Positions 15,718-60,318 of a DNA stretch of 64,000 nt are shown in pieces; the stretch's first letter is position 1; every line of letters begins with the position of its first letter. The notes below the pieces were generated by a model, which worked only from the letters and a program-made list of their open reading frames with translations, was not told where the DNA came from and searched no databases. The stretch comes from an uncultured delta proteobacterium. GTDB lineage: Bacteria; Desulfobacterota; Binatia; Binatales; Binataceae. Location: assembly GCA_963814035.1 (NCBI GenBank), contig CAWFBH010000001.1, positions 337,130 to 401,129 on the forward strand. The letters run 5' to 3'. The translations under genes and the position numbers were made by a program.

Positions 15718-15732
15718 ATCTCTATGTCGCTG

Positions 15733-40211: not shown

Positions 40212-41210
40212 TTATTCGAGTCGCAGCTTCGCGAACACGCCGGCGTGATCGGTGGGCCAGACCCCAGAAGCGGTTCGCGCCGCCGGCTGCGCTGCCACCA
40301 ACTTCGCGGAAATCGGGGTGATCGCGCCGCGCAGAAGAATCAAATCGAGTCGGCGGTTGAGTTCGGCGGCGATGTTGCGCAAATCCGGCGCGTGGCAGCA
40401 GGTGTTCCCGGGATCTCCGGAGTTCACCGCCGCCCACGCGTCGGTAAATCCGGCGGCGATCAGGTCCGGGTAGGTGCGGGTGTAATCCTCGACCTCGGGG
40501 CGTCGATTCGCATTCGAATTGAAGTCCCCCACCATGATGATGGGGAACCCTACATTCGCGAGCGCTGCGATGAGCTCATTGTTTTGCGCTACTTGAACCG
40601 CCTCTTCCAGCGATTCGATGTGCGTCTCGACGAAGCGGAATTTCCGGTCATCGAGTAGCGCATCAACTGCGATCCAACTGCGCGGGACGTTCACTGTTCC
40701 CATCAACGGGCTGCCAACTTCGTAGAGGGTCGTGAATGTTTTGGCCTCCGCATCGTAGGGGCGGACTTTACTGGGATTCGGACCAACCCGGAGAAGCACC
40801 GCGTGTCGATCCTGAAATTCCACGAAGTTTCCATTCATATCGCAGGGCGCGGAGCGATTGAGGTCTCGATTCACCGCGATTGGCGTGTAGAAGAAGCCCT
40901 CTTTCTGCAGCGCCTGGAGAACCAGCAGTAGAAAATCATACTTCGGCGCCATGGTGCCCGGCGCTCCTGCGGACCAGAGAGCGATCTCCTGCAAAGCTAC
41001 CAGGTCGGGCGCGGATGCCGCGATCTGATGCGCGATGCTGACTGCTCGCGCGGGAATATCGGTAGCCTGAACCTCGGCCCAGAGTTTTCCGAGCGTTTCG
41101 ATCAGCCCCGGGAAATCCTTCGCGCCGAATGCCGGCCCGAGATCGGTCCCGAAATAGACGTTCAAGGTCAGGACGGTGACATCGCGAGGACCAGAACTTG
41201 ATTCTTCCAT
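40212..41210 (-). CDS. Endonuclease/exonuclease/phosphatase (EEP) family hydrolase
   Basis: It has the EEP motif series: LTLNVYFG, VALQEI, IMVGDFNS, and PTDHAGVFAKL at the C-terminus. Confidence 0.75.
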   Translation of the reverse strand: MEESSSGPRDVTVLTLNVYFGTDLGPAFGAKDFPGLIETLGKLWAEVQATDIPARAVSIAHQIAASAPDLVALQEIALWSAGAPGTMAPKYDFLLLVLQALQKEGFFYTPIAVNRDLNRSAPCDMNGNFVEFQDRHAVLLRVGPNPSKVRPYDAEAKTFTTLYEVGSPLMGTVNVPRSWIAVDALLDDRKFRFVETHIESLEEAVQVAQNNELIAALANVGFPIIMVGDFNSNANRRPEVEDYTRTYPDLIAAGFTDAWAAVNSGDPGNTCCHAPDLRNIAAELNRRLDLILLRGAITPISAKLVAAQPAARTASGVWPTDHAGVFAKLRLE

Positions 41211-41285
41211 CTTTGCCTTTGGCGATTGCCTCGTGCTCGGACGTGGCAGTTGGACGCGATTCCTTGTTTTACAGCGGTTGGAACT

Positions 41286-44200
41286 TCAGGCCTGCGAATT
41301 CGTGGCGGCGATGCGTCCTTCGCTAAGCTTGAGCCATCCGGTCATTTCGAGGCTGCGAAATTGTCGCGCGGCTACTTCGAGAAGCGGTAGCGCTCGCGCG
41401 GTGTCTCCTGGCTGATGGCGCCGAAGGTACATCAACGCCTCATCGTAATCCGCAATCGCGCGAAGCGGTCGCGCTCCGGCCTCTTCCAGAACCTTCCGGG
41501 CCTTGGCAAACCATTCGGACGCTTCATCATGCCGCCCCTGAAGCGCACACAAGTGCGCGAGTTCGAGACGAGCGTCAACCGCGGGCCATCGCAAGTCAGG
41601 CGCGAGAACCTTCTGGCGAATGCTTTGCTCAATCACTTCCACATGATCAGTGCGGTTGAGCAGCCACAGCGTAGCTGCAGCCAACAGGGTCATCGGAATG
41701 TAGTTGATGCCCCAGGAGGCGCCCTTCTCAACCGCCAGCGGAAGTTCGTTCAGGTAGCGCAGCGCACGATCGGGTTGGCCCGAGTAAGCATAGCCGCATG
41801 CCACATAGGCAGTGGCCCCGGACAGGGTCCATTTTATTTCCTCGCCGATGGCCTTTAACGCTTCAACCACGCTGATTTGTGATTCCGACGGATGTCCAAG
41901 GCTGCTGGTCATATCGGCGAGGAACTGGGGCCAGTCCTGGTTGAGCAACATCTGGAATTCGACCCGTGCACCTAGAAAGCTAACCGTACCAAACGAGGGA
42001 CGCGCGAGACGTGCGGCCAGAGCCGCGGCGCGATCCAGCGCGGCGCGCGTCTCAACGAATTCACCCAATGCCGCGCGGCATCTGGCCACGCCCGCCCATG
42101 CCCGCACCGCTCTCGCGAGTGAGCCGCTGCGCTCGCCCTCGATCCCTTCCTGCTGCCATAGCGCAAGGGCGAGGCGAAAATCTCCGCCCCGCATGGTAAT
42201 CCTTGCCACCGGCGCCGGGTCGCTGATGATTTCCTCCCGCGTGTAGTGGACCGGATCGATGTGGCGCGATCTCAATTGCTCCGGTGGCAGCCGCCGAAGC
42301 ACTTCGCAGAGCTGGCGGCTCTCGGGCGAATCCATCGAAGTTCCGGGATTTGCCGGGTCTTCGGCCTCGGCGCGATTGAGGTCGATCTCGGTCAGACTCG
42401 CCCAGGTTATGTCGCGCCTGGCCTCGATGTAGCGCAAACCCTCTTTGGCCAGTTCCCATGCGCCGCGGGTGAGGCTGGCATTGAACATCGCGCGGGCGAT
42501 CTGTTCGTAGTAATCGGCGGTGGCATCTGTACCCTCGGAAGCCATGACAGCCTTTCCGGCGGCATGGGCCGTCTTCAGAGCTTCCGCCCCGTCGAACGAC
42601 CAGGTCAGCGCGAAGCTCAGGCGCGCGAGTATTCGCGGACGCCGGGGATCGTCTTTCGGCAGCAATTCCAGTGCGATGCGCAGGAAAGCCGCGACATCGT
42701 CGTGACCATAGGCGGCTTCGGCGTTGTCGGCCGCGGCAACTGCATAGTCTGCTCCGCGTCCGGTGCCGGCCTCTGCGGAGCCACGCCAGAACTGAAATGC
42801 CACTTCCGCCGCATGATGTGCCACGAGCTCGCCCCACGCGCGCTCCATCTCTTCGGCAATTTTTCGATGCAGTCTGACGCGCCGAACCGAATTGAGTTGC
42901 GCATAGAGCGTGTGCCGAATGATGGCATGGGTGAAATCGAAACTTTCCGCGTCGGGGCCGGGGCGCAACAGTTTCGCTTCCAGCGCCTCATCGATGGAGG
43001 ATAAGGCCGCGTTCTCATCGAGTTCCGCCACCGAGGCGGCCACTTCGAGTGCGAATGGACCATTGAAGGCCGAGGCCACGGAAAGCAGCCGATTGGCCGG
43101 CTCCGAGAGCCTCAAAACCCGTCTGCCGATTAACTGCCGCACGCTTTCGGGGATGCCGAGCTCGTCAATGTTCGGCCGCGAACTCCAACCTTTGCCTTCG
43201 CGCAGGATCTCGCCCTTTTCGAAAAGGTCGAGCAGCAGCTCGCGAATAAACAGCGGGTTACCATCGGTCGCCTCGCCGAGCGCTTTGACCAGGTTTTCAG
43301 GCGCGCCTTGATCGCCGATGAGGCCGAGCAAGTCCGCCAACTCCTCACGCTTGAGCCCGTCGAGGGTCAAACTCTCGAAATTGCGCACCCGGCTCATCCC
43401 GGCCAGCGCCGCCGTAAGCGGATGTTTGCGGTCCACTTCGGCGTCGCGATAGGCGCCAAGCAGGAGGATGGAATTGGCGGCGACGAAATGGGCGACGTGA
43501 CTCAGCATCGCAACCGTGCCGCGATCGGCCCAGTGTAAGTCATCCAGCAGCAGGACCAGAGGGCCGCGATGTGAAAGCGTAATAACGAACTGCGCGACCG
43601 CATCAAACAGCCGGAAGCGCTCATCTTCCTTGTCCAGCGAGGCAGGTTCCGCGGCATCGTTCAGCGATTCGCGCAGCGACGGTGCGATGCGCGCGAGGAT
43701 CGATCCACGCTTCCCCAACACTGCCGCGAACTGCGCCGGATCGGCATGGCGGGCGTATTCCGCAATCGCCTCGGCGAAGGGCGCGAAGGGCGGTTGCCAT
43801 TCGCCGTCGTAACACGCGCCGCGCAGGATGGTTACCCCTTGCTGCCGCGCCTGGTCGGCAAATTCGTCGATGGTGCGGGTTTTGCCGATGCCCGGTTCGC
43901 CTCGCAGCATCACAATTGAGCCGCGACCGTTGCGCGCTTCTTCGAGTCTGTTCGCCAGCCGTTTGAGCTGCTTGACCCGCCCGACGAAGGGCGTCCGGTT
44001 CAGCATCACCGCCGGATCGTTGCGCTCGTAAACCACCTCGCAAACGCCAATGGACGTCGCGGTTCCCTTGAGCTCGATCGAGCCGACATCGTGAAAGCTG
44101 AAAGCCTGACGTGAGGCGAGCAGTTCCGCGATCAGCCTGCTGCATAGGATTTGTCCGCTCGCGGCTCGATCGCACAACTGGCGCGCGACTACCACCGGGG

Positions 44201-44528
44201 TCCCGAAATATCCCCCGTCGCGGCGCAGCACCTCGCCCATATGGATACCGACGCGGATCTCGAATCGAATGCCGGCGGTGGGTCGCCCCGCCGTTTGTTG
44301 CACGGTTATCGCGCATCGCACGGCGTCCGCCGCCGATGGAAACGCCGCGAGCATCCCGTCGCCGAGCCACTTCAATTCCTGCCCACCGCCCGCCGTGACC
44401 GCATCGCTCATAAGCTTGTGATGGACGCGGAAGAGCTGATCGCCGGCCTCGTCGCCCGCGCGCTGCAAATGCTGGGTGGAGCTGACGAGGTCAGTATAAA
44501 GCAGGGTCAGGGTGCCCGATTCTGTCAT
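41286..44528 (-). CDS. Class III nucleotide cyclase - AAA_16/STAND NTPase - TPR-like repeat protein (copy 1, 1080 aa, intact)
   Basis: The N-terminal cyclase homology domain has LLYTDLVSST, ELKWLGDGMLAAF and EIRVGIHMGEV. It has Walker A LRGEPGIGKTR and Walker B LVLLLDDLHWAD. About 650 aa of helical repeat region follow. I could not see a C-terminal HTH. Confidence 0.85.
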   Translation of the reverse strand: MTESGTLTLLYTDLVSSTQHLQRAGDEAGDQLFRVHHKLMSDAVTAGGGQELKWLGDGMLAAFPSAADAVRCAITVQQTAGRPTAGIRFEIRVGIHMGEVLRRDGGYFGTPVVVARQLCDRAASGQILCSRLIAELLASRQAFSFHDVGSIELKGTATSIGVCEVVYERNDPAVMLNRTPFVGRVKQLKRLANRLEEARNGRGSIVMLRGEPGIGKTRTIDEFADQARQQGVTILRGACYDGEWQPPFAPFAEAIAEYARHADPAQFAAVLGKRGSILARIAPSLRESLNDAAEPASLDKEDERFRLFDAVAQFVITLSHRGPLVLLLDDLHWADRGTVAMLSHVAHFVAANSILLLGAYRDAEVDRKHPLTAALAGMSRVRNFESLTLDGLKREELADLLGLIGDQGAPENLVKALGEATDGNPLFIRELLLDLFEKGEILREGKGWSSRPNIDELGIPESVRQLIGRRVLRLSEPANRLLSVASAFNGPFALEVAASVAELDENAALSSIDEALEAKLLRPGPDAESFDFTHAIIRHTLYAQLNSVRRVRLHRKIAEEMERAWGELVAHHAAEVAFQFWRGSAEAGTGRGADYAVAAADNAEAAYGHDDVAAFLRIALELLPKDDPRRPRILARLSFALTWSFDGAEALKTAHAAGKAVMASEGTDATADYYEQIARAMFNASLTRGAWELAKEGLRYIEARRDITWASLTEIDLNRAEAEDPANPGTSMDSPESRQLCEVLRRLPPEQLRSRHIDPVHYTREEIISDPAPVARITMRGGDFRLALALWQQEGIEGERSGSLARAVRAWAGVARCRAALGEFVETRAALDRAAALAARLARPSFGTVSFLGARVEFQMLLNQDWPQFLADMTSSLGHPSESQISVVEALKAIGEEIKWTLSGATAYVACGYAYSGQPDRALRYLNELPLAVEKGASWGINYIPMTLLAAATLWLLNRTDHVEVIEQSIRQKVLAPDLRWPAVDARLELAHLCALQGRHDEASEWFAKARKVLEEAGARPLRAIADYDEALMYLRRHQPGDTARALPLLEVAARQFRSLEMTGWLKLSEGRIAATNSQA

Positions 44529-44558
44529 GACGGCATGCCCGCACTTCGCCCGCGGCGC

Positions 44559-46355
44559 TTAACCGGGAGCGGCCTGCGAATGATTCGCGCCCGCAAACAG
44601 GACGCCTTTCCGTTTTTCCAAAACTTCCATGGTGTGCCGATAGCCGGCATTGACGGTGAAATCGAATGCCTTCCAATCGAGCATGCTCACTTCTTCGAGT
44701 GGGGGTTGAAACAGCAGATCGACCTGCCCGCGCATCCTTTTCAGTTGGAGATGTCCACCGATCGTTCCCGACGCCATCAACAATCTGAGGATGTTGGGAG
44801 TGCCCTGCCGCGCATGGCTAAAGAGCTGCCAAAGCGGACGATGATCGATGTCATCGACGGTGGCTTTGAATCCGTAATCGTTGGAAGCGTCCGCCGCGAT
44901 GATCGGACCGCGACGCATCTCACTCATGATATCGATGGGAAGATTATTGACCAGCCCGCCATCGATCAGGATGTCAGACCCTTCGATCATCGGCGGCAGC
45001 ACGCCCGGAATCGCCACGCTGGCGCGCACCGCCCACCAGATCGGACCGGTTCGATGAACCTTCAGCACGCCCTTGGTGAGGTTGGCGGACACGCAGAAGT
45101 AAGGATAGGAACAGTCCTCGATCAACGCTTCGCCAAAATGCTTGCGAAACAATCCGGTCGCCTTCCTTCCTCGTGCCAGCGCAATCAGGGGAACGGTGTA
45201 GTCTCCGACCGGGTTGGTGAAGCCGAACGCATCTTTCATGCGTTCCAGGAGAATCCGATCATCCCAGTCAAGCGCCACGCCTCCGGCGATGATCGCGCCC
45301 ATACTGGCGCCGCCGAAGAGATCCAGCTCGATGCCCGCTTCACGCAGCGCACGAATCACTCCGATATGGGTAAGCGCGCGCGCCCCGCCTCCCGACAAGA
45401 CCATGCCCATCGCGCGGCCCGTGAGCATCCGCGCGAGACGGCGAAAATCGCGCGGCACCTGCCGGCGCACATGATGATGCTGCGTCACTTCCACCAGCTT
45501 CAGCAGAGAAATCGTCTCCGCAGGCGAGACCGACTGATCGCGATATAACACCAGCTCGACCACCGCCCGGCGCGGATTGTTCAACGCGGCTTCAATCGAA
45601 GGCGGGACAAAGGCCGGCGGTCGAGTCGCTTCGGCCAGCAGCACGACACGGTCAGCCTGGCGCAAACAATGACTCGTCCACTCCGACTCTTCGGCGTCGG
45701 CCTGGTAGAGGACTACGTCGTGGGCTTCTTCGAGCGCGTTGAACCATTCGATGGGACGATCGACCGAGGTATGGTCGAGGACATTAGACTTGAGTCCCAA
45801 CTCCGCAAACGTCTGCGCCAGCGTTCGAGTGAAACTTGAAGCGGCGAGATCGCGGTTGAATGGAAATATCGCAATCGTCCTCGGGGCCTGGGTCGCCGGC
45901 GCCAGCCGCGGCGGCTCTCGGAGCCGCCGGACCAGCAAATCGGTTACGAAGCGAAGCGACTTCGGATGCGCGTCGATGAGTTTGTCGAAGGCCGATTTCG
46001 ACAACCGCACAACCTCGGTATCGCGCAGCGCGATGACGGTCGCAGATCGCGGCTCACCGGATAAAACCGCCATCTCACCTACCGTCTCTCCGCGTGGCAT
46101 CTGACGGACCAGAACCTCCTTGCCTTCGTCATTGGGCAGGAAAGCTCCGAGACGCCCGGACAGAACTACATAGAGCGAATCGTCGCGGTCGCCCTGGCGA
46201 AAAAGCAATTGTCCGCCGGGCAAACTGAACCAGTCGAATTCGGAGGCGATGGCTTCGAGGAGACGCGGCTCGATGCCATCAAATAGCGTCAGTCCGGAAA
46301 GCTTTTCGATGAGTCCGGGAGCGGCGTCAGGAGTACCTATCGATGAAGTTGTCAA
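44559..46355 (-). CDS. Cyclic-nucleotide-binding domain protein fused to a patatin-like phospholipase
   Basis: The cNMP-binding domain has FRQGDRDDSLYVVLSGRL...GETVGEMAVLSGEPRSATVIAL (phosphate-binding cassette). The patatin domain has the oxyanion motif VLSGGGARALTHIG, nucleophile GASMG, and catalytic Asp in ILIDGGLVNNLP. The apparent start codon is TTG. Confidence 0.85.
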   Translation of the reverse strand: MTTSSIGTPDAAPGLIEKLSGLTLFDGIEPRLLEAIASEFDWFSLPGGQLLFRQGDRDDSLYVVLSGRLGAFLPNDEGKEVLVRQMPRGETVGEMAVLSGEPRSATVIALRDTEVVRLSKSAFDKLIDAHPKSLRFVTDLLVRRLREPPRLAPATQAPRTIAIFPFNRDLAASSFTRTLAQTFAELGLKSNVLDHTSVDRPIEWFNALEEAHDVVLYQADAEESEWTSHCLRQADRVVLLAEATRPPAFVPPSIEAALNNPRRAVVELVLYRDQSVSPAETISLLKLVEVTQHHHVRRQVPRDFRRLARMLTGRAMGMVLSGGGARALTHIGVIRALREAGIELDLFGGASMGAIIAGGVALDWDDRILLERMKDAFGFTNPVGDYTVPLIALARGRKATGLFRKHFGEALIEDCSYPYFCVSANLTKGVLKVHRTGPIWWAVRASVAIPGVLPPMIEGSDILIDGGLVNNLPIDIMSEMRRGPIIAADASNDYGFKATVDDIDHRPLWQLFSHARQGTPNILRLLMASGTIGGHLQLKRMRGQVDLLFQPPLEEVSMLDWKAFDFTVNAGYRHTMEVLEKRKGVLFAGANHSQAAPG

Positions 46356-46674
46356 ACCGAGCTACTCGCGCGATCGCAAAAAACGATACAGAGGAGGTCG
46401 TGCTACAGTCAGGCTCAAATTAATACAAGGTAGCTTGCGCGAGATCAAGGATAGTCGCATTTGCGTACTCAATGTCGGCTTATTTCATGCTGACGCAGCC
46501 TTATTTAGGCATCGCGACTTTACCTCCATGCCACATAGTATTACGATTGCGTCGATTTATCCTTCAGATTGTTATGTTAGCCAGCGCGTTGCGACACCTT
46601 CCAGATTCTCTCTTCAGGCTTCACACGCTGCGGCTCGCTATGACGGCTTTTGTGACCGTCAAGGACGTATTCGC

Positions 46675-47805
46675 TTGAGATTCAACATTGTGATGACACT
46701 TCTCATAGGCGGCGCGCTGGCTGTTTTCGTCGGATGCGGCAGCGACTCGCGCCCCGCGGAACAAACGAAGATTGCCGTGACCGTCCTCAAGGTGAGCGAG
46801 GGAGAGGAATCCAATTCCGGCGCGTATACCGCGAGCTTTCAGCCCCATCGCCAGACTGCCCTCTCATTCCAGGTCGGCGGTTATGTCGATTCCATCAAAC
46901 AAGTGCCCGGCGGCGATGGACGGATGCGTGACCTGCAGGGAGGCGATTCGGTCAAGGAACACGAACTGCTCGCGACCGTGAAGGCCGATACCTATCAAGC
47001 CCAGGTCAGTCAGTCCGAATCCGCGCTCGCGGGAGCGAAAGCGGTCTATGAAAAGGCCAAGCGGGATTTCGAGCGCGATGGCCAGTTGCTCGGCCAGCAC
47101 ATCATCGCGCGCGAAACCTACGACCTATCGTCCGAGCAATATCAATCCGCGCAATCGCAGGTTGCACAGGCGGAAGCGGCGCTGAAGCAAGCGCAAATCA
47201 ACCTGGGATATTGCAAGCTGACGGCGCCGATGGATGGGATAATTCTGGAACGCGGCATCGAGGTCGGTTCTCTCGCAGGACCGGCCAATGCCGCCTTTCA
47301 AATCGCCGACACTTCCACCATGAAGGCGGTGTTCGGCAGCTCCGACATCCAGGTGGCGCAATTCAAGCAAGGTCAAGCCCAAACCCTCACCACCGAAGCG
47401 ATTCCCGGGGCGCAATTGGTGGGAACCATCACACGCGTCGCGCCGAACGCGGATCCGACTACCAGGGTTTATGACGTCGAGATCACCGTCCCCAACAAGG
47501 ACGGCAAAATTCGCACCGGCATGATCGCGTCGCTGAAGGTCGCCGGCGCGGTCACCGCGGCCAGCACCGCCGCTACCCTTCCCCTCAATGCGATCGTCCG
47601 CCCGCCCGACGACCAGAAAGATTTCGCGGTTTATGTGGTCGAAGAAAAAGCCGGCAAGAGCCTCGCGCGACTGCGCAGGGTTCGCCTCGGCGACATCGTC
47701 GGCAACGAAATCGCCGTGTCCTCGGGAGTCCAGATGGGAGATGAGGTGATCGTGCGCGGCGCGACGATGGTATCGGATGGCACCGAAGTTCAGGTCATTC
47801 GCTGA
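46675..47805 (+). CDS. RND efflux periplasmic adaptor, probable lipoprotein
   Basis: An in-frame TTG at 46675 gives (M)RFNIVMTLLIGGALAVFVGCGS, which contains a lipobox; the ATG at 46693 is an alternative start. Adaptor pattern: YCKLTAPMDGIILERGIEVGS. The upstream 142 codons of the track ORF look non-coding. Confidence 0.85.
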   Translation: MRFNIVMTLLIGGALAVFVGCGSDSRPAEQTKIAVTVLKVSEGEESNSGAYTASFQPHRQTALSFQVGGYVDSIKQVPGGDGRMRDLQGGDSVKEHELLATVKADTYQAQVSQSESALAGAKAVYEKAKRDFERDGQLLGQHIIARETYDLSSEQYQSAQSQVAQAEAALKQAQINLGYCKLTAPMDGIILERGIEVGSLAGPANAAFQIADTSTMKAVFGSSDIQVAQFKQGQAQTLTTEAIPGAQLVGTITRVAPNADPTTRVYDVEITVPNKDGKIRTGMIASLKVAGAVTAASTAATLPLNAIVRPPDDQKDFAVYVVEEKAGKSLARLRRVRLGDIVGNEIAVSSGVQMGDEVIVRGATMVSDGTEVQVIR

Positions 47806-50800
47806 TGGCGCATCGTAGCGATTCCGAGATCATCGCCACCACCCACAATGTGGCGCGGTTCTTCGTCGAGAACCGTGCCATCGCCTGGATGCTGCTTATC
47901 GGGGTGATGGCCTGGGGCATCCTCGGCTATGCGCGCATGCCCAAGCGCAAGGATCCTGAGCTTCCGGTTCGCGAGGCGGTCGCCATATGTCCGTGGCCCG
48001 GCGTCCGCGCCGAGAAAATCGAGCAGATGGTGACGCGGAAGATCGAAGCGGTGATGGCGGAGAATTCTTCCGTCAATTCCGCCGGCGCCAGCAGCACCTA
48101 CGGCATCAAATCCACCACCCTCGACGGGGTCGCCATCGTCAACGTTCAGTTGGCTGAAAATGTCACTGACACCGGCAAGCAATTCAGTGACATCAATCTG
48201 CGCCTGAACAGCATCAACGATCTTCCAAACGGCGCGGGGCCCATTCAGTTCATCAGCGACTATGGCGACACCGCCGCGCTGATGCTCACCGTCGCGAGTC
48301 CCAAGCTAGGCGAGGTGGAGCTTGCGCTGCGGGCGCGCGCCATTCGTGCCGCGATCGAGAAGGCTCGCGAGTCGGCGCCGGCTGATGCAAAAACCTCGCG
48401 CGTGTCGCTGGTGACATTATTTCCCGAGGCGATCGGCACCGAAAACGTCGCTCGGGTGCGCGATGGGCTGACGCTCTATCTTCAGGCGCATAAGCTTGCG
48501 CGCGATATTCGTCCACTCGACGGCAACGGTTTCATCGGTTTGGATGCCGCGATCGCCCCCAATGTCGATCTCGCGGGGATCACGCGCACCTTCATCGCCG
48601 ATCATGTCGGCACTTCGGTCTTTCCCATCGTGCATCCCGATGCGTGGGCTCCGGTGCTGATTCGAAATCCCGCCGATACCGAGGCCGATCTGGATGCGGC
48701 GGCGGGCGACAAGTACACCTATCGCGAACTCGATCGTTATACCGACCTGATCCAGCGCGCACTCGAGACGCTACCGAATGTAGGGAAAGTGACGCGCTCG
48801 GGAGTGCTGCCGGAATGGATTCAGCTCGCCTACTCGCAGCGGCGGCTCGCGTCCTACGGCGTGCAGCCCGCGCGCCTCGCGCAGATCCTCGCCGAGCGCA
48901 ACATCACCCGCGCGGGAGGAACCATCGATGCGGCCGGGACCGATGTCACGGTGCATCCGAGCGGTGAATTTACCAATGCCGCGGAAATCGGCGACGTCAT
49001 CGTGCAGGCGACGCCGTCCGGCACTCCGCTCTATCTGCGCGATCTGGTGGAGGTCTTGCGCGGCTATCAGAATCCGCCGCAGTTGCTCAACTTCTACACC
49101 TCACGCAATGCGAAGGGCCGCTGGAACCGCAATCGCGCAATTACCCTGGCCATTTTTATGCGCTCCGGCCAGCAGATCGGCGCGTTCGGCAAGTCAGTCG
49201 ATCGCGCGCTGGGCGACCTGAAGAGCCGGCTTCCCGAGGACCTTATCATCGCGCGAACTTCCGACCAGCCGCGCCAGGTGCATGAAAACATCGACCTGCT
49301 GATGGGCGCGCTTTACGAAGCTATCGTGCTGGTCATCTTTGTCGCGCTGATCGGCTTTTGGGAATGGCGCTCCGCCTTGCTGATTGCGCTGGCGATTCCG
49401 ATCACGCTCGCGATGACGTTTGGGATGATGGATGTTCTCGGGATCGATTTGCAACAGGTTTCGATCGCAAGCCTCATCATCGCGTTGGGACTGCTGGTCG
49501 ATGATCCGGTGGTCGCGGGCGACGCGATTAAACATGAACTGGGGATGGGGAAGCCGGCGGCGATCGCGGCATGGCTTGGGCCCACCAAACTCAGCCGCGC
49601 CATCCTGTTCGCGACCATCACCAATATCGTCGCCTACCTGCCCTTCCTGATGCTGACCGGCGACACCGGGCGATTCCTGTATAGCCTGCCGATCGTGATG
49701 ACCTGCGCGCTGGTGGCCTCGCGAATCGTGTCGATGACCTTCATCCCGCAACTGGGCTACTACCTGATGCGACCCGGCAAACCGCTGCCGCCGATCGAGT
49801 ATCGCCGCACGCATGGAGTGACGGGGCTCTACTACAAGCTCGGGCACTACGCGCTCGAACATCGCAAGGCGTTCGTCGTAGTGTTCGTTCGTCTTCCTCG
49901 CGGGAGGTTTTTTCATCGGCAAGCATCTCCGGACCGCGTTCTTTCCCGAGGACGTTCAATATCTCGCGTATGTTGACGTATGGCTGCCGAACGGCGCCGC
50001 GCTCTCCGATACGAATGCGTGGCATCGCGGGCCGAAAGCGTGGTTCGAAAAGTCGCCCAGGACTATGGACATCGACATCCGGGTCGCGATGGCAAGCCTC
50101 GCGAGATCCTGAAATCCGTGACCAGCTTCGTCGGCGGCGGCGGTCCACGCTTCTGGATCTCCGCGCCTTCGGAATCGCAGCAAAGTAATTTTGCTCAGCT
50201 GGTTCTCGAAATCGAAGACAAGGACGACATGCCCAAGCTTGTCGGTCCGCTGCAAACCGCGCTGACCGAATCGGTACCCGGCGCTTACCTCGACGCGCGC
50301 CAGTTGCTGACCAATCCGGTGCGCTTCCCGATCGAGATTCATGTCTTCGGCCATGCGGATATCGACGCATCCCAGGAAGATTCGGACATCGACACGCTGC
50401 GGACCACCGCGGGCCGCATCGAGCAGATCCTGCGCTCGACTCCCGGGCGTTGCAAAACGTTCGCACTGACTGGATGGAGGAGAGCCCCGGCGTCGAGCTG
50501 ACGATCAATGCCGACCGCGCCAACATGGCGGGCATCAGCAACGCCGATATCGCGCGCTCCGCAGCCGCGGGTCTCAGCGGATGGCCGGTCGGAACGCTGC
50601 TCGATGGCGATACTCGCGTACCGATCGTTGCCCGCCTTCGGCAGGAAGAGCGCGCGAAGCTCGCCGATGTGGAGAATCTCTACGTCTATGCGCAGAACGG
50701 ACCCGGCCGCCCGTTAAATTCACTGGCGCCGGTGATCTTTCAGATGAGCCAGGAGCGCATCGTGCGGCGCGATCATTTCCGCACCATGACCATCAACGCG

Positions 50801-51457
50801 TTGACCAAGAGCGGCGTCCTGTCCTCGCAAGTGATGAGTCAGGCGATGCCGCAAATCAACGCGCTGCGCGACCAGCTCCCGCCGGGCTATCGCATCGTGA
50901 TCGGCGGCGAGCAGTACAAGCAGGAAGACGGCTTCGGGCAATTGACCCTGGTGCTGGAAATTTCGGTCGCGCTGATTTTCATCGCGCTGGTTTTGCAGTT
51001 CAACAACCTCATCAAACCGTGGCTGATTTTCGTGGCGGTGCCCTACGGCGTCGTGGGCGCGCTCGGAGCGCTCTGGCTAACCGGCACGCCGTTCGGCTTC
51101 ATGGCGTTCCTGGGAGTCGCGAGTTTGATCGGCGTAATCGTCAGCCATGTGATCGTCTTGTTCGAGTTTATCGAGGAGCGCCAGGACCTGGGCGAGGAAC
51201 TCATCCAGGGACTCCTCGATGCCGGCATCGAACGGCTGCGCCCGGTGATGGTGACCGTCGGCGCCACGGTGCTGGCGCTGTTGCCGCTGGCCTTTCACGG
51301 CGGGCCATTATGGCGTCCACTCTGCTTCGCGCAGATCGGCGGGCTTAGCCTCGCGACGATCATCGAGTTGGTCTTGGTGAAGTCGTTCTATGCGATCTTT
51401 GTCGCCGACCTGGGCATCCTGAAATGGGGCCCGTCGACGCCAGCGACGCACGAATAA
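47805..51457 (+). CDS. RND efflux permease with enlarged first periplasmic loop, at least two frame breaks (about 49880-49980 and 50460)
   Basis: The ORFs 47805..49976, 49980..50501 and 50450..51457 join to give about 1217 codons. It has RND TM4 ALGLLVDDPVV and C-terminal TM bundles. Its ATG overlaps the adaptor stop in TGATG. Confidence 0.85.
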
Positions 51458-51466: not shown

Positions 51467-54400
51467 TTACTTTCCGCTGCCCTCGGTCATCGCGGCTTCG
51501 GCGCGGCGGACCCATCCGGTCATTCCGATCTCGCGAAATTGATGCAGGGCAAGATCCAGCAGCGGACGCGCGCGCTCGAGGTCGCCGGCGTCGCCGCGAC
51601 GCAGGTACATCAGCGCTTCGTCGTAGTCGGTGATAGCTCGCAGTGGACGGGCACCCTGCTCTTCCAATACCAGCCGCGCCTTGGCGAACCAATCGACGGC
51701 CTCGTCGTAGCGATGTTGCAGCGCGCACAGGCGAGCGATCGACAAGCGGCTGTCGCGCATCGGCAACCGATAGTCGGGAGCGAGGACTTTGTTTCGGATA
51801 TTTCGCTCCACGATGCCGATCGAATCGGTACGGTTGAGGAACCACAACGTCGCCGCAGTATCACAGGCCATGGCGCTATACACGTAGGTCCATCCGGCGC
51901 CGGCTTCAATCGCGCGGAACAGCAGCTCGAGCCGTTGCAACGCCAGTTCGGTCTGATTGATGCGACTTAGGATGTAGGCCGCGGCGCCGTGGATGCCGGC
52001 CTCGGCATATCTGTTCTCATCGCGGCACTCCAGCATCATCGCCATGAACGCAGGATCGCTAAAAACATCCCCCCATCCTTCATCCAGCATGATGCGTAGA
52101 TCCTGTTTGGCCGAGAGCAGATTCAGCAGCCACGGAGACGACCCAACCCGGCGCGTCGAGAATCCGACCGCGCGATCGTAGGCCGCCTGCGCGAGGGTAA
52201 GATCTCCCAGCGCCGTGTGGCATCGTGCCACGCTCGCCCACGCATGCATCGCCCACGTGATGCGGCCCGCACGTTCCGCCTCAGCGGCCTCGTGTTGCCA
52301 GATCGGCAAAGTGCGCCGGAATTCACCGGCAAGGAACGCCAGCGCAGTCGGCGAGGCATCCGGGGATTCGATAATCTCTTGCCTCGATTCATACGGCCGT
52401 TCGAGGCCAACCGCGCGCAGTTGCTCGGGCGGTAGCTGTTTCAGAAAGGCGCGATGCTCGCGTTCGTTTGCGGTCTCGCATCGAATACCCGGATTGGCCG
52501 GGTCCTCGGCTGCGCGGCGCATCAAATCCACCTCGTTGAGGGCGGCCCAGTTGACGTCGCGCCGATCGCCCGCATAACGGAGGCCTTCCTTGGCCAGCGT
52601 CCAGGCGCCGCGCTGCAACCCTCCGTTGTACATCGCGCGCACCGCCGTGCGGTAATATTCGACCGCGGCGGCCGGGCTTTCCACGACCGCAACCAGGTCT
52701 GCGGCCTCACGACTCGCCTTAACCGCCTCCTCGAGGTTGAGGGTATATGCGAACGACAGTCCGAGGCGCGCCATCAGCCGAGGCCTTTGAGGATCCTCCG
52801 GCGCCAGCAGTTCCAGTGCGATGCGCAAAAACGCGATTACCTCGTCATGCGCATACGCGGCCTCGGCATTATTCGCCGCGGCAATCGCGTAATCCGCTCC
52901 GCGTTTGGCCCCGGAAGCCGCCGCGCCGCACCAGAACTGATAGGCGACCTCGGCCGCGTGATCCGAGGCGCGGTCACCCCAGGTTTGTTCCATCGCTTCC
53001 GCGATCCGCCGATGCAGCCGCACTCTGCGGGCAGGATTCAATCCGGAGTAAAGCGAATGACGAATGAGCGCATGCGTGAAGTCGAAAGTTTCCGCCGTGG
53101 TCCCGGGCCGCAAAAGCTGCGCATCGAGCGCTTCGTCAACCGCCGTCAGCGCAGCATCTTCATCCAACTCGGCAACCGCCGCCGCCACATCGAATGAGAA
53201 TGCACCCTTGAAGCATGCGCCCACCGTCAGCAGCCGATTCGCATCTTCGGAAAGCTTCAGCAGGCGGCGTCCGATGACACTGCGCACGCCTTCCGGAATG
53301 CCCAACTCGGTAACGCTGAACCTGGCTCCCCATCCCTTGCCGTCGCGCAGAATCTTGCCCTCTTCCATCAGATGCAGGAGGACTTCGCGGATGAACAGCG
53401 GATTTCCTTCGGTCTCCGTCGTGAGAGTCTGGACCAGCGCCTCGGGCGCGTCCTGGTCGGCGATGATGGAAAGCAGTTCCACCAACTCGGTGCTCTGCAA
53501 GCCCTTGAGAGCGAGAACTTCAAAGTTGGGAAGTCGCCGGACCGTCGCAAGGGCGCGCGCCAGCGGATGCATCCTGTCCACTTCCGCATCGCGGTAAGCG
53601 CCGATCAACAGCATCGAATTGGCGGCGACGCTATGGGCAACGTGGTTAAGCAGCCCGACGGTGCCGCGATCCGCCCAGTGCAAATCATCGAGCACCAGCA
53701 CCAGCGGCGCGCGCCGCGAAAGCTCGATCAGAAACTGCGACACCGCATCGAGGAGACGGAATCGTTCCTCCTCCTTGTCGAGCGCGATCGGCTCGGTGAT
53801 CGCTCCGATTTTTTCGCGCAACACCGGTGCGATGCGGGCCAGCGTGGCGGCATTATTCCCGCATACGGCGATGAGCTCGGAGGACTGCGCCTGGCGCGCA
53901 TACTGACTGATCGCTTCCGCGAAGGGACCGTAAGGCGGTTGCCATTCGCCGTCGTAGCAGGAGCCCTTCAGCACAATCGCTCGGCGCTCGCGCGCGAACT
54001 CCGAGAACTCAGCAATCATGCGGCTCTTTCCGATGCCCGGCTCGCCCTGCAGCATCACGATCGAGCCCTGGCCATTGCAAGCCTCTTCGAGCCTCGCGGA
54101 GAGCCGTTTGAGTTGCTCGGCACGGCCCACGAAAGGGGTGCGATTGATCAGGGCCGCGGCATCGTTGCGCTGATAAAGGACCTCGGCGACGGCGGTTGGG
54201 GTCGCGATGCCTTTGAGCGCGAGCGTCCCCTTGTCGCGAAAAGAAAAGGTTTGCCGCGCCGACAACATATCGACGACCAGCTTGCTGACCAGGATCTGCC
54301 CGGCCACCGCGCTATCGCATAACCGGCGCGCCAACACGATCGGGACGCCAAAGTAACCGTCCTCACGGCGCAACACCTCGCCGACATGGATGCCGATGCG

Positions 54401-54673
54401 GATCTCAAATTTGGCGCCGTCGATGGGGCGGCGCGCGGTCTGCTCAATTCGAATCGCACAGCGCACCGCGTCGGCGGCCGAAGAAAACGCGGCCAGCACC
54501 CCATCCCCGAGCCATTGCAGCTCCTCGCCGCCGCAGCCGCCGATCGCATCGGACATCAGTTTGTGATGGGCCCGAAAGAGCCGATGGCCAGTCTCGTCGC
54601 CGGCGCGCTCCAACAGCTGGGTGGAGTTGACTAGATCGGTAAAGAGCAGGGTCTGAGTGCCGGATGCCGCCAT
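51467..54673 (-). CDS. Class III nucleotide cyclase - AAA_16/STAND NTPase - TPR-like repeat protein (copy 2, intact)
   Basis: Same architecture as copy 1. The ATG at 54673 gives MAASGTQTLLFTDLVNST.... It has ELQWLGDGVLAAF, Walker A LQGEPGIGKSR and Walker B LVLVLDDLHWAD. Confidence 0.85.
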   Translation of the reverse strand: MAASGTQTLLFTDLVNSTQLLERAGDETGHRLFRAHHKLMSDAIGGCGGEELQWLGDGVLAAFSSAADAVRCAIRIEQTARRPIDGAKFEIRIGIHVGEVLRREDGYFGVPIVLARRLCDSAVAGQILVSKLVVDMLSARQTFSFRDKGTLALKGIATPTAVAEVLYQRNDAAALINRTPFVGRAEQLKRLSARLEEACNGQGSIVMLQGEPGIGKSRMIAEFSEFARERRAIVLKGSCYDGEWQPPYGPFAEAISQYARQAQSSELIAVCGNNAATLARIAPVLREKIGAITEPIALDKEEERFRLLDAVSQFLIELSRRAPLVLVLDDLHWADRGTVGLLNHVAHSVAANSMLLIGAYRDAEVDRMHPLARALATVRRLPNFEVLALKGLQSTELVELLSIIADQDAPEALVQTLTTETEGNPLFIREVLLHLMEEGKILRDGKGWGARFSVTELGIPEGVRSVIGRRLLKLSEDANRLLTVGACFKGAFSFDVAAAVAELDEDAALTAVDEALDAQLLRPGTTAETFDFTHALIRHSLYSGLNPARRVRLHRRIAEAMEQTWGDRASDHAAEVAYQFWCGAAASGAKRGADYAIAAANNAEAAYAHDEVIAFLRIALELLAPEDPQRPRLMARLGLSFAYTLNLEEAVKASREAADLVAVVESPAAAVEYYRTAVRAMYNGGLQRGAWTLAKEGLRYAGDRRDVNWAALNEVDLMRRAAEDPANPGIRCETANEREHRAFLKQLPPEQLRAVGLERPYESRQEIIESPDASPTALAFLAGEFRRTLPIWQHEAAEAERAGRITWAMHAWASVARCHTALGDLTLAQAAYDRAVGFSTRRVGSSPWLLNLLSAKQDLRIMLDEGWGDVFSDPAFMAMMLECRDENRYAEAGIHGAAAYILSRINQTELALQRLELLFRAIEAGAGWTYVYSAMACDTAATLWFLNRTDSIGIVERNIRNKVLAPDYRLPMRDSRLSIARLCALQHRYDEAVDWFAKARLVLEEQGARPLRAITDYDEALMYLRRGDAGDLERARPLLDLALHQFREIGMTGWVRRAEAAMTEGSGK

Positions 54674-55006
54674 GCTAAACCTACATGGCTCCCGCGACTC
54701 ACGAGGATGCGACGGATCGGAACATGTGGGTTTCCGAACCGAAACCATCGCGGCTGTTCCGAAATGCTTGAGGGTGCATTGGGTTGGCGGGCCACCGCAA
54801 CTTCTCGAACTAAAAGAGCAATCGCGTCAATTGTTGGCTTTAATGCGCTCTGTTTGGCTTATTCTTCCGAATCGTACGATCGGCCTATTCTTCTGTCAAA
54901 CTGTAGTCAAATCTGGACGTTGAGTAGCGATACCCGCGTATTTCGTACCCGCCGTAAGTCCTTCGACGTCGAGGATCCATCGGTGATACCGCGCGCGCGA
55001 AATTTA

Positions 55007-55028
55007 GTGGCACAGGCTTCAGCCTGTG
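55007..55028. repeat. REP-like palindrome GTGGCACAGGCTTCAGCCTGTG (left inverted-repeat copy)
   Basis: It forms the hairpin CACAGGC-TTCA-GCCTGTG. It is the exact reverse complement of 57053..57074. Confidence 0.85.
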
Positions 55029-55059
55029 TCTTCTTCTTCGCTGTGTTGTCGATTGACAT

Positions 55060-55126
55060 CAATCGTCCACAGACCTAAAGCCCGTGCCACCGAAGATCGC
55101 GACCGTAGAAGGCTGTGCGATGGCAC
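55060..55126 (+). repeat. 67-bp direct repeat, copy A (contains a degenerate CACAG..GTGCCAC element)
   Basis: CAATCGTCCACAGACCTAAAGCCCGTGCCACCGAAGATCGCGACCGTAGAAGGCTGTGCGATGGCAC. By eye it is about 85-90% identical to copy B, which lies 299 bp downstream. Confidence 0.8.
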
Positions 55127-55135
55127 CATCGCTGC

Positions 55136-56177: not shown

Positions 56178-56182
56178 CCGTT

Positions 56183-57110: not shown

Positions 57111-60100
57111 CTATTCTACGCCGCCGCCGCTCATCGCGGCCAGCGCACGCCGGATCCATCCGGTCATGCCGATCTCGCGAAATTGACTCAGCGCAACTTC
57201 CAGCAGCGGTCGCGCTCGTGCCAGGTCGCCGGTGCCGCCGCGACGGAGGTACATCAGCGCTTCGTCGTAGTCGGTGATCGCACGCAGCGGACGCGCGCCC
57301 TGCTCATCCAGTACCGTCGCGTGCCTTGGCGAACCAATCGACCGCCTCATCATAGCGACGTTGCAGCGCGCACAAACGACCCATCGACAAACGGCTATCG
57401 CGCATCGGATAGCGGAAGTCGGGAACGAGGACTTTTTCGCGCAGGTTGCGCTCCACCAGCCCGATCGAATCGGTACGGTCGAGGAACCACAGCGTCGCGG
57501 CCGTGTCACAGGCCATGCCGCCATAGACGAAAGTCCAACCGGCGCCGGCTTCAATCGCGGGAAACAGCAATTCGAGCCGCTGCAGCGCCATTTCAGTCTG
57601 GTTGATGCGGCTAAGGACGTATGCAGCCGCGGCGTGGATGGCCGCGGAGGCCCATTTGTTGTCCTCGCGGGTCTCCTGCATGATCGCCATCAGCACCGGA
57701 TCGGTAAAAACCTCGTCCCAGCCATCATCCAACATGATGCGCAAATCCTGCCTGGCCGAGAGCAGATTCAGCAGCCATGGCGACGATCCGACTCTGCGCG
57801 CCGAGAAGGCGACGGCGCGATCGTAGGCCGCCTGCGCCTGAGCGAGCTCTCCCAAGGCCATGTGGCATCGCGCGACGCTAGTCCACGCGTGCATTGCCCA
57901 CATGATGCGTCCGGCGCGTTCCGCCTCGACCGCCTCCTGGTGCCAGATGGGCAGGCTGCGCCGGAGCTCCCCGGCCAGGAACAGCAGCGCGCTCGGTGAG
58001 GGGTCGGGAGATTCGAGGACCTCTTTTCTCGATTCCACCGGCTGGTCCAGACCAACCGCGCGCAGTTGCTCAGGCGGGAATTGCTTCAAAATCGCCCGAT
58101 GTTCGCGTTCGTTGGGCGTCTCGACACGGATACCCGGATTGGCCGGGTCCTCGGCTGACTGGCGCATCAAATCCATCTCGTTGATCGCGGCCCAGTTGAC
58201 GTCGCGCCGATCGCCCGCATGGCGGAGCCCGTCTTTCGCCAGGGTCCATGCGGCGCGCAGCAGGCCCCCGTTGTACAGCGCACGAACGACTATCCGCAGG
58301 TATTCGGTGGCCGCGACTGGGCCTTCCGCGGCGGCAATCATGTCAGCGGCCTCGCTGCTGACTTTGACCGCCTCATCGGCACTGAGCGTATATGCGAGAG
58401 AGAGCCCGAGGCGCGCCATCAGCCGCGATCGTTGCGGATCGTCCGGCGCCAAAAGCTCGAGTGCGATGCGCAGAAACGCGACTACCTCATCATGCGCATA
58501 CACCGCTTCGGCATTGTTCGCGGCGGAGATCGCATAGTCGGCGCCGCGCTTCGCGCCGGAAGCGGCCGCGCCGCACCAGAATTGATAGGCGACCTCGGCC
58601 GCATGATCCGACACCCGCTCGCCCCACGTACGTTCCATCGCCTCGGCAATCCGCCGATGCCATCGCACCCTGCGGGCAGGATTCAAGCCCGAGTAAAGCG
58701 AATGACGAATGAGGGCGTGGGTGAAATCGAAAGTTTCTGCGGTGGTTCCCGGACGCAGAAGCTGCGCATCGAGGGCTTCGTCAACCGCGGTCAGCGCCGC
58801 ACCTTCATCCAGCTCGGCAACCGCGGCGGCGACATCGAATGAGAACGCACCCTTAAAGCATGCGGCGACGGTCAGCAGCCGGTTGGCGTCTTCAGAGAGC
58901 TTCATCAGGCGGCGCTCGATGACGCTGCGCACGCCTTCGGGAATGCCCAGTTCGGTGACGCTGAACCGCGAGCCCCATCCCTCGCCGTCGCGCAGAATCT
59001 TGCCCTCTTCCATCAGATGAAGGAGGACTTCGCGAATAAAGAGCGGATTGCCTTCGGTTTCCGCGGTCAGGGTCTGGACCAGCGGCTCGGGCGCCTCCTG
59101 GTCGGCGATGATGGACAGCAACTCGACCAACTCGGTGCTCTTCAAACCTTTGAGGGCGAGGACTTCGAAGTTCGGCAGCCGCCGAACCGTGGCAAGGGCG
59201 CGCGCCAGCGGATGCATCCGGTCCACCTCGGCATCGCGGTAAGCGCCGATAAGCAGCATCGAATTGGCGGCGACATTATTGGCCACATGGTTGAGCAGCC
59301 CGACGGTGCCGCGATCGGCCCAGTGCAAATCATCGAGCACCAGCACCAGGGGCGAGCGGCGCGCGACTTCGATGAGAAACTGCGAAACCGCATCGAGGAG
59401 GCGGAATCTTTCTTCTTCTTTGTCGAGCGGAGCGGGCTCGATGATGGTGCCGATTTTCTCGCGCACCGCCGGTGCGATGCGGGCAAGCGTGGCGGCATTG
59501 TTCCCGCATACCGCGATAAGCTCGGAGGACTGGGCCTGGCGCGCATACTGGCTGATGGCCTCGGCGAAGGGGCCGTAGGGCGGTTGCCATTCGCCGTCGT
59601 AGCAGGCGCCGCGCAGCACGATCGCTCGGCGCTCGTGCGCGAACTCGGAAAACTCAGCAATCATGCGGCTTTTTCCGATGCCGGGCTCGCCCTGGAGCAT
59701 CACGATCGAGCCCTGGCCGTTGCAAGCCTCTTCGAGCTTCGCGGAAAGGCGGCTGAGTTGCTCGGCACGGCCGACGAAGGGGGTGCGATTGATCAGGGCG
59801 GCGGCATCATTGCGCTCATAGACCACCTCGGCAACGGGGGTGGGCGTCGGGATGCCTTTGAGCATGCGGGCATCGAGTTCGCGAAAAGCGAATGCTTGCC
59901 GCGCCGACAACATATCAACTATGAGCCTGCTACATAGGATCTGCCCGGCGACCGCGCTATCGCATAGCCGGCGCGCCAACACGATCGGGACGCCGAAGTA
60001 ACCGTCCTCACGTCGGAGCACTTCGCCGACGTGAATGCCGATGCGGATCTCAAATTTGGCGCCGTCGATCGGGCGACGCGCGGTCTGCTGGATTCGAATC

Positions 60101-60318
60101 GCGCAACGCACAGCGTCGGCGGCGGAGGCATAGGCGGCCAGCACGCCATCGCCTAACCATTGCAACTCCTCGCCGCCATTGGTGCTGATGGCGTTAGACA
60201 TCAACTTGTGATGGGCCGCGAAGAGGCGATGACCGGCTTCGTCACCGGCGCGCCCCAAGAGCTGCGTAGAATTCACCAAATCTGTGAAAAGCAGCGTTAA
60301 GGTTCCTGATTCCGCCAT
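57111..60318 (-). CDS. Class III nucleotide cyclase - AAA_16/STAND NTPase - TPR-like repeat protein (copy 3), one frame break at about 57318
   Basis: ORF 57304..60318 (1004 aa) ends prematurely at ...WFAKARDGTG. Removing one G near 57318 gives ...AKARTVLDEQGARPLRAITDYDEALMYLRRG..., which continues in ORF 57111..57554 and parallels the copy 2 C-terminus. Confidence 0.85.

Follow-up and report, generated by a model that had tools for sequence, protein, structure and literature searches.

An NTE-family lipase with a cyclic-nucleotide-binding domain clusters with cyclase-STAND, exporter and EEP phosphoesterase genes in Binataceae

The 64,000-nucleotide stretch of the Binataceae contig CAWFBH010000001.1 analysed here (the window, always meaning its full length) encodes three consecutive genes: a lipase of the NTE family with a cyclic nucleoside monophosphate (cNMP)-binding domain, a class III nucleotide cyclase fused to a STAND NTPase and helical repeats (CYC1), and a phosphoesterase of the EEP superfamily. 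An RND-type exporter is encoded divergently beside the lipase. The domain architectures and the lipase motifs are intact, and these four families recur together in related genomes through repeated rearrangements of gene order and orientation. We lean, with a little more confidence than doubt, towards reading the locus as a chromosomal, vertically inherited and Binataceae-specific circuit for membrane-lipid turnover and export that would be modulated by cNMP, and not as a defence system. The best-supported description is ordinary cNMP signalling in a lineage-specific form, linked to genes for lipids and export.

The three genes lie on the minus strand (Table 1), and the open reading frame (ORF) listing gives stop-to-start spacers of exactly 30 and 75 nt, in agreement with a first-pass annotation made from the sequence, whose quoted motifs are likewise all present in the translations. 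G+C content is even over the trio, and the promoter/terminator scan found no terminator-like site between its genes. The closest homologues of all three proteins come from metagenome-assembled genomes (MAGs) of Candidatus Binataceae, with a soil MAG contig (L001) as the closest relative, whose lipase is 96% identical to that of the window; an exact search of the contig index for the window lipase itself had no match. The first-pass annotation overlooked the divergent RND pump and two more cyclase-STAND paralogs in the window.

Pfam places three domains in the lipase, all above the gathering score and in the order cNMP_binding (residues 44-130, E 5e-24), NTE_Ploop (159-298, E 1.6e-22) and Patatin (318-476, E 1.3e-27). 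Of the 120 best homologues, nearly all share these three domains; cNMP_binding is lacking in a few shorter, apparently truncated proteins. The translation shows a canonical phosphate-binding cassette (GEMAVLSGEPRSATV, with Arg103) and complete catalytic motifs, namely SGGGAR (G322-G324/R326), GASMG (S351) and DGG (D465). An N-terminal cNMP-binding domain with its cassette and a patatin domain with all catalytic elements had both been proposed from the sequence and are borne out here, while the NTE_Ploop domain went unmentioned; since the protein also carries this domain, it is a standard bacterial 'NTE family protein' and not a novel fusion. Bacterial proteins of this kind (KEGG K07001), among which we take Rv2565 of M. 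tuberculosis to belong by its architecture, share the three domains, the Ser-Asp dyad and the intact oxyanion GGGxR. By its domain order and its catalytic and oxyanion residues the window lipase is a member of the family, and an esterase/lysophospholipase activity is predicted. Homologues are plentiful (more than 5345) and are named 'NTE family protein' or patatin-like phospholipase. Human NTE has three receptor domains and a transmembrane anchor; in eukaryotic NTE, these domains have no identified ligand so far, and cNMP binding has never been shown (PMC6995513). Compared with human NTE (PNPLA6, and also PNPLA7), the bacterial form has a single receptor domain and no transmembrane anchor. What sets the Binataceae gene apart from other NTE family proteins is its clustering with cyclase-STAND, exporter and EEP genes, of which our literature searches found no description.

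In 224 homologues, the patatin Ser and Asp and the oxyanion residues do not vary, and neither do Gly93 and Glu94 of the phosphate-binding cassette. The 134 closest homologues (the 120 best matches together with the loci of at least 50% identity, mainly from Binataceae) retain Arg103 in 127 cases and show little or no variation at Ser104 and Ala105. Ser104 and Ala105 are variable in the more distant set, and in 90 cyclase-less orthologues below 50% identity the position of Arg103 is occupied by Arg in 41 and by His in 46. An intact receptor site thus appears to correlate, to a modest degree, with the presence of cyclase neighbours.

CYC1 is encoded 30 nt downstream of the lipase. Its Guanylate_cyc match in Pfam (residues 4-156, E 7.7e-7) reaches only 29 bits, AAA_16 is matched at 180-351 (E 1.4e-28), and TPR repeats are recognized only at 983-1057. 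The cyclase domain is real, with a non-canonical active site: its closest solved relative in a PDB sequence search is Ma1120 (E 4e-25), with Rv1900c also matched, and the modelled domain superposes on Ma1120 with a TM score of 0.93 and a root-mean-square deviation of 1.4 Å in Foldseek. In the AlphaFold model (mean pLDDT 86), the cyclase fold (1-166) is followed by the NTPase, a winged-helix region extending to about residue 545 and all-alpha repeats from 547 to 1079, and Foldseek matches for this remainder are the STAND-TPR protein 6mfv, Avs3 and Apaf-1. With Walker A (GEPGIGKTR), Walker B (LLLDDLHWAD), the winged helix and the repeats all present, CYC1 is a STAND NTPase of the AAA_16, MalT/Apaf-like type. 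The Pfam scan revealed no helix-turn-helix (HTH) or other DNA-binding domain, and the model consists of all-alpha repeats up to the C-terminus. The N-terminal cyclase, the AAA_16/STAND P-loop NTPase and the lack of a DNA-binding output domain had all been read correctly at first pass; the repeat region, put there at about 650 aa, spans about 530 aa in the model. Class III cyclase, AAA_16 and helical repeats are also combined, with the cyclase N-terminal or internal, in the mycobacterial Rv0386/Rv1358/Rv2488c class and in the TOMM kinase/cyclase fusion TIGR03903, the best NCBIfam match of CYC1 (residues 7-625, 180 bits against a cut-off of 706), but CYC1 carries neither the C-terminal LuxR/GerE HTH nor a kinase domain.

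To compare active sites, 122 members of the cyclase-STAND family were aligned to Ma1120, with positions given in CYC1 numbering. In Ma1120, K101 and D157 specify the base, A164 stands in place of the usual Asn and R168 stabilises the transition state, and the protein is active as a cyclase despite the Ala at the canonical Asn position (PMC4215837). The metal-binding Asp residues of Ma1120 are conserved in the family and present in CYC1 as D13 and D57. At position 53, corresponding to K101, the family has Gln in 68 members, Glu in 41 and Lys in 10, CYC1 having Lys; at position 106 (D157 in Ma1120), Gly is found in 113 members and in CYC1, so that the base-specifying pair of CYC1, K53-G106, is a hybrid of the adenylyl (Lys-Asp) and guanylyl (Glu-Cys/Gly/Ser) types. 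The transition-state Asn-Arg pair is missing from CYC1, where V113 and Q117 stand instead. Val at 113 (A164 in Ma1120) is the family rule, being found in 113 members, and position 117 (R168) is Arg in 110 members and Gln in 10, with R116 adjoining Q117 in CYC1. The combination of K53-G106 with R116-Q117 is confined to CYC1 and its close orthologues (window, L001, L081, P0122-P0124); the only other carriers of K53 and Q117 are two longer proteins of about 1255 aa (P0192, P0198), which have Asp at 106 and likewise an Arg directly before Q117.

Both metal Asp residues and Arg117 are kept in most paralogs. CYC2, 56% identical to CYC1, has Q53, G106 and R116-R117, and other lipase-adjacent paralogs carry either E53-G106-R117 (L002, L085, L088) or Q53 (L093). 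E53-G106 is the pair typical of guanylyl cyclases, and Rv0386 reportedly has Gln at the first base-specifying position, as do most cyclase-STAND paralogs. Because position 53 varies among Gln, Glu and Lys and position 106 is nearly fixed as Gly, the nucleotide produced may differ from paralog to paralog. No part of CYC1 is better conserved than its cyclase domain (97% identity, with about 92% elsewhere, in the comparison with L001, and 65% with 50-63% elsewhere for L002), which indicates that it is under constraint. The family, which has more than 4900 matches, has undergone massive expansion in Binataceae, and many paralogs of 53-66% identity share contigs. A single orthogroup of lipase-linked cyclases was considered and rejected on a rough neighbour-joining (NJ) tree without support values and on the active-site signatures.

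The third protein of the trio belongs to the EEP superfamily by its fold and conserved residues, as had been proposed at first pass. It matches Exo_endo_phos in Pfam (E 1.1e-9), the canonical metal and catalytic residues N17, E75, D229, N231, D289, D321 and H322 are invariant in 30 homologues, and its model (pLDDT 92) finds TDP2, unassigned bacterial EEPs and nocturnin as top Foldseek matches (TMq about 0.58). The family is small, with 294 matches, mostly from Binataceae. No NCBIfam match and no PDB sequence match was found, and no signal-peptide-like N-terminus was seen in the translation. Assignment to a named subfamily was attempted and abandoned, the fold matches being generic (TDP2, nocturnin) and pointing neither to a sphingomyelinase nor to an inositol phosphatase specifically. 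A role as a cNMP phosphodiesterase or as a lipid phosphodiesterase would be speculative.

The fourth family is the exporter on the other side of the lipase. The periplasmic adaptor scores 218 bits on NCBIfam RND_mfp, above the cut-off, and since its homologues are 375-381 aa long, the true start of the window adaptor is probably near 46.6-46.7 kb. Alignment of the intact L001 protein by tblastn shows that the RND permease of the window carries an in-frame stop (about 49976) and a frameshift (about 50448). The relatives L001 and L081 encode it undamaged, at 1216-1217 aa, and permease orthologues of 70-97% identity adjoin the lipase in 17 loci. AcrB and cyclase genes are similarly fragmented in L082, L083 and L124. 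The lipase-linked permease (47805-49976; L001 4901-8551) is an atypical RND protein, to which AcrB profiles align only from about residue 300 (profile position about 150), with all NCBIfam scores far under their cut-offs, and it is 22% identical to the other AcrB of the window (24403-27591). In L083, L089, L091, L118, L121 and L124, the lipase is the last gene of an RND, ABC or MFS exporter operon. In L118 (985-6131), an NTE-type lipase follows the genes for an AprE-type adaptor and for a cNMP_binding-PeptidaseC39-ABC transporter as the last of their operon, and in L121 (6123-10791), which has an adaptor and MFS transporter operon, the lipase starts 20 nt past the transporter. These two operons echo efflux/NTE-like proteins of M. 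tuberculosis: a table in a review (PMC10865251) lists Rv3728/Rv3239c-type efflux proteins with cNMP/NTE-like regions. In contrast to those, the lipase and the exporter are separate proteins here. The TIGR03896 'cyc_nuc_ocin' proteins of bacteriocin-type ABC/HlyD export also tie cNMP-binding domains to exporters, although the match to that model is weak (37 bits against a cut-off of 161).

How far the clustering extends was followed in two sets of loci. The broad set comprises 80 loci from species-representative genomes, found by a lipase profile search and taken with up to 10 kb per side. The Binataceae-type set comprises 24 loci (the window, L001-L003, L081, L083, L085-L096, L098, L118 and L121-L124), drawn from that search, a metagenome scan and contig look-ups, and mapped by tblastn or precomputed Pfam. 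In the latter, an exporter with a membrane-fusion protein (MFP) stands by the lipase at 19 loci (RND at 17, ABC in L118, MFS in L121), a cyclase-STAND gene lies in the available flank at 12 and an EEP gene is present at 10, making the exporter the most constant partner of the Binataceae lipase. The locus is syntenic in relatives whose lipases are 54-96% identical to that of the window. With the lipase written as PAT and the cyclase-STAND gene as CYC, the order is PAT>CYC>EEP in the window, PAT>CYC><EEP in L081 and L088, PAT>EEP>CYC in L124, EEP>MFP>AcrB>PAT with a divergent, distant cyclase-STAND gene in L083 and L089, EEP>PAT>MFP>AcrB in L095, PAT>CYC>MFP>AcrB..<EEP in L093 and PAT>MFP>AcrB..CYC><EEP in L098, and CYC and PAT stand back to back in L085. 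Even L001 differs from the window, a 201-aa ORF (11840-12445, +) lying between lipase and cyclase and overlapping the cyclase start by 4 nt; this ORF has no Pfam or PADLOC match and is missing from the window. The EEP-peroxidase block of L001 is 5 kb off and inverted, with HAD hydrolases between. The tight operon described at first pass therefore holds for the window, where it is one local arrangement; elsewhere order and orientation vary, and the EEP gene, whose strand and position shift even between close relatives, is not a fixed operon member. That the four families are kept clustered through this reshuffling suggests selection on their proximity, or a functional association. The first-pass annotation had also drawn a functional pairing from a cyclase lying beside a cNMP receptor, a pairing that an absence of conserved neighbourhood would have undercut; the adjacency recurs across Binataceae in several orders and orientations, so the neighbourhood is conserved. 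Downstream of the lipase in L083 (10765-17782), unlike in the window, there are RHS/YD-repeat gene fragments, a region of polymorphic-toxin type.

Orthologous lipases outside Binataceae have SDR, thiolase or phospholipid-synthesis genes as neighbours. In the broad set, tblastn found a cyclase-STAND relative only at the two loci closest to the window (lipase identity 96% and 70%) and none at the third Binatia locus (59%). Clustering of the neighbours at the distant loci placed an SDR directly upstream in 32 of them and returned a Sel1-repeat family (26 loci), a thiolase (22), an aldo-keto reductase and a methyltransferase, and no cyclase family. An ancestral link between SDR and lipase was considered and set aside: with only 25% identity, the window SDR gives no evidence of orthology to the SDR that adjoins proteobacterial lipases.

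The features of the window that bear on the locus are collected in Table 1. The putative promoter precedes the lipase start codon by about 65 nt and falls in the intergenic region shared with the divergent pump operon; the block aligns in 7 divergently arranged loci with strict conservation at scattered positions only, and the site is absent from the output of the promoter/terminator scan. The window has CYC2 and CYC3 where L001 has a single gene, which points to a recent duplication or deletion; counting all copies around the lipase-exporter locus, there are three cyclase-STAND genes in the window and two each in L001, L081, L085 and L088. The last 65 or so residues of CYC3 are in another frame, and the ORF 57111-57554 holds the conserved C-terminal sequence, which places a frameshift near 57304-57330. 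Between CYC2 and CYC3, where L001 has the single paralog, lies a 2.4-kb stretch (54750-57110) of lower G+C content (about 0.565) with small ORFs, one of 142 aa and two of 108 aa, of which one of the latter has a Cys_rich_CPCC zinc-ribbon-like motif. These ORFs gave no Pfam match except a borderline one to Cys_rich_CPCC (24.1 bits, cut-off 24.5) and none in PADLOC. The stretch looks like an insertion, or a remnant of duplication or deletion between the paralogs. Otherwise the window holds housekeeping genes, among them those for an H+-pyrophosphatase, ClpX, an MFS transporter, tryptophan biosynthesis and arginyl-tRNA synthetase (argS), as well as an SDR, glutathione peroxidase, the second, unrelated AcrB pump, an amidohydrolase and an alpha/beta hydrolase. 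A search of 36-61 kb of the window for Rfam families had no match.

Table 1. Features of the lipase locus in the window.
Feature	Position	Strand	Size and evidence
Divergent cytoplasmic EEP metal-dependent phosphoesterase (predicted)	40212..41210	(-)	332 aa; Pfam, model
CYC1, class III cyclase-AAA_16 STAND-helical repeats	41286..44528	(-)	1080 aa; Pfam, PDB sequence match, AlphaFold, Foldseek
NTE-family lipase	44559..46355	(-)	598 aa, TTG start; Pfam and translation
Putative sigma-70-like promoter, TTGATC-17 nt-TATTAA	46419..46448	(-)	Consensus match only
RND membrane-fusion (periplasmic adaptor) protein	46249..47805	(+)	Pfam HlyD_D23, HlyD_3; NCBIfam RND_mfp
AcrB-type RND permease, broken	47805..51457	(+)	Pfam ACR_tran on both fragments; tblastn
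CYC2, second cyclase-AAA_16-repeat paralog	51467..54748	(-)	Pfam, translation, residue map
CYC3, third cyclase-AAA_16-repeat paralog, frameshifted	57111..60318	(-)	Pfam; C-terminal part in ORF 57111-57554

The first-pass annotation had presented the trio as a candidate signalling-suicide module that parallels abortive-infection systems. In such a module the STAND protein would sense a phage component, the cyclase would make a cNMP alarm and the cNMP-gated patatin would destroy the membrane, with the EEP protein as a second effector or as the terminator of the signal. The domain logic does parallel known systems. As in the window, Pycsar pairs a cyclase gene with one for a destructive enzyme that carries a fused cNMP-binding domain, CBASS-CapV puts a patatin phospholipase under a nucleotide second messenger (as is predicted here), and the STAND-repeat fold recalls Avs3 and Apaf-1. 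In contrast to Pycsar, the window cyclase is not PycC and continues into a STAND sensor of 900 aa, the effector domain is a patatin and not TIR or TM, and context and inheritance are those of a housekeeping, syntenic locus. CapV has no CRP-type receptor domain, and no CD-NTase is found among the window ORFs scanned. Where Avs is concerned, the N-terminal domain of CYC1 is a cyclase and the resemblance to Avs3 is at the general STAND level only (TM about 0.17). PADLOC models, a check that had been suggested at first pass, were applied to the trio, to CYC2 and CYC3, to the pump genes and to the low-GC insert with its small ORFs, and gave domain-level matches only, with no defence system assigned. 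Favourable to the defence account is the match of the lipase receptor domain to the receptor part of PycTIR models (E 5.5e-20). The remaining matches are generic: CYC1 reaches 17-20 bits on PycC models (E 8.6e-5 to 8e-4, over part of the domain only), the patatin domain matches CBASS phospholipase effector models at E about 1e-4 to 1e-5, and no Avs model matches any of the three paralogs. In NCBIfam, where no trio protein reached any cut-off, the lipase scores 23.6 bits on CBASS_lipase against a cut-off of 200. The paralog expansion, with Lys, Glu or Gln at position 53, recalls diversifying sensors, and the low-GC insert between two paralogs could also be taken as a sign of defence, but the flanks are housekeeping and no defence, integrase or transposase gene was detected among the window ORFs scanned. 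Defence loci are typically patchy, whereas this one keeps its synteny across Binataceae with lipases 54-96% identical to that of the window. The lipase family, moreover, is very large, and its usual company is lipid-metabolism genes without a cyclase; an exporter, which has no role in the suicide model, is the partner most often kept, and our literature searches found no paper pairing a cNMP-binding patatin with a cognate or Pycsar-type cyclase, nor Pycsar with a patatin effector. Taken together, we regard a role in abortive infection as improbable, and a housekeeping membrane-lipid signalling circuit, which the same annotation had offered as its fallback, as the better reading.

A more serious competitor holds that there is no private link between lipase and cyclase. 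The lipase, the exporter and perhaps the EEP protein would then form the unit, the receptor domain answering the global cNMP pool or some other ligand, and cyclase-STAND genes would be present through a duplication hot-spot of an abundant family, CYC1 being possibly a catalytically weakened pseudo-cyclase that serves as a scaffold. Several observations weigh against the circuit and mostly in favour of this alternative. Half of the 24 Binataceae loci are without a cyclase-STAND gene, the exporter (19 loci) is more constant than the cyclase (12), and four of the cyclase-less loci offer about 9-10 kb per side: L003 (lipase, then the RND pair), L121 (MFP, MFS transporter, lipase), L122 (an SDR and thiolase context) and L123, where genes for CDP-alcohol phosphatidyltransferase, a PLD/cardiolipin-synthase-like protein and PAP2 come after the lipase. 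The 24 loci are phylogenetically related, which means that these counts are not independent events, and several of the loci have short flanks. At the 77 distant loci, mostly alpha- and gammaproteobacterial with lipases of 36-48% identity, tblastn found no cyclase-STAND gene, a search that is not very sensitive with a divergent cyclase domain and was made without a Pfam scan over all flanking ORFs. Lipase-adjacent cyclases are polyphyletic among the paralogs, falling into at least five separate clades in a rough NJ distance tree without support values, and they differ at the base-specifying position 53 (Lys, Glu or Gln); as they are not one orthogroup, lipase and cyclase may not form a fixed pair. 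A hot-spot of paralog duplication could account for part of the adjacency, and the two window genes that face a single one in L001 fit such recent turnover. When four paralogs were picked regardless of context, three had unrelated housekeeping genes around them, with neither a cNMP-binding protein nor another cyclase-STAND paralog encoded nearby, and the fourth (L118) lay 6 kb from an NTE-lipase ending an exporter operon; the cyclase-STAND family overall is not paired with cNMP-receptor effectors. In CYC1 and its close orthologues, Gln117 replaces the transition-state Arg, although Arg116 adjoins it. This Arg is described as essential in mammalian cyclases (work cited in PMC4215837), and with Gln in its place the activity of CYC1 is uncertain and looks doubtful. 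The lack of any demonstrated cNMP binding in eukaryotic NTE (PMC6995513) points the same way. Finally, the RND pump may be dead in this genome, or the assembly has indel errors.

Set against the absence of a private link is the recurrence of the adjacency in tandem, divergent and interleaved forms, for which duplication alone is hardly a sufficient explanation. It is specifically the lineage with cyclase neighbours that keeps the canonical receptor Arg, and the cyclase domain is the best-conserved part of CYC1. Cyclase-STAND paralogs also accumulate around the lipase-exporter locus, in contrast to the three copies picked from unrelated settings. We hold the no-link explanation to be a substantial minority possibility. 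The circuit for lipid turnover and export is also consistent with the housekeeping lipid context of the family, in which we count the phospholipid genes of L123, the SDR and thiolase neighbours of the proteobacterial lipases and the argS, trp, glutathione peroxidase and SDR flanks of the window. The L123 locus (9001-19168) is of note in its own right as a phospholipid-metabolism cluster that contains a 57%-identical lipase and neither cyclase nor pump.

The mechanism by which such a circuit could operate would involve the following steps. First, the helical-repeat domain of the STAND protein would sense a ligand or stress, and NTP-dependent oligomerisation would then bring the cyclase domains together as active dimers. 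The resulting cAMP or cGMP would bind the receptor domain of the lipase and change its activity or location; this step, from cyclase product to lipase receptor, is suggested by the domain logic and by the recurrent adjacency of the two genes. The lipase would in turn deacylate phospholipids or lysophospholipids, and the products, or else the amphiphile behind the response, would be processed or exported by the EEP protein and the pump. We infer in this scheme that CYC1 is active, which nucleotide it makes, that the lipase senses this product and what all the substrates are.

For the discovery of defence systems the locus carries a caution, as the combination of a cyclase, a cNMP-receptor effector and STAND logic can arise in ordinary chromosomal signalling. 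For the biology of the lipases, the NTE-type enzymes that end RND, ABC or MFS exporter operons suggest a link between phospholipid deacylation and export, of which we found no description in literature searches. The locus could also help answer what the cyclic-nucleotide-binding domains of NTE/PNPLA6-family lipases do: with a canonical cassette, a cyclase encoded 30 nt downstream, and proteins that are small and soluble, the role of the NTE receptor domain is directly testable on them. More ambitiously, and only tentatively, the STAND-cyclase sensors of Binataceae might form dedicated circuits with a cNMP-gated NTE-type phospholipase, its cognate exporter and an EEP protein, which would amount to an undescribed membrane-stress or envelope-immunity response. 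If this were true, the Binataceae lipase would be the first NTE-family enzyme with a defined receptor-domain ligand and an identified cognate cyclase.

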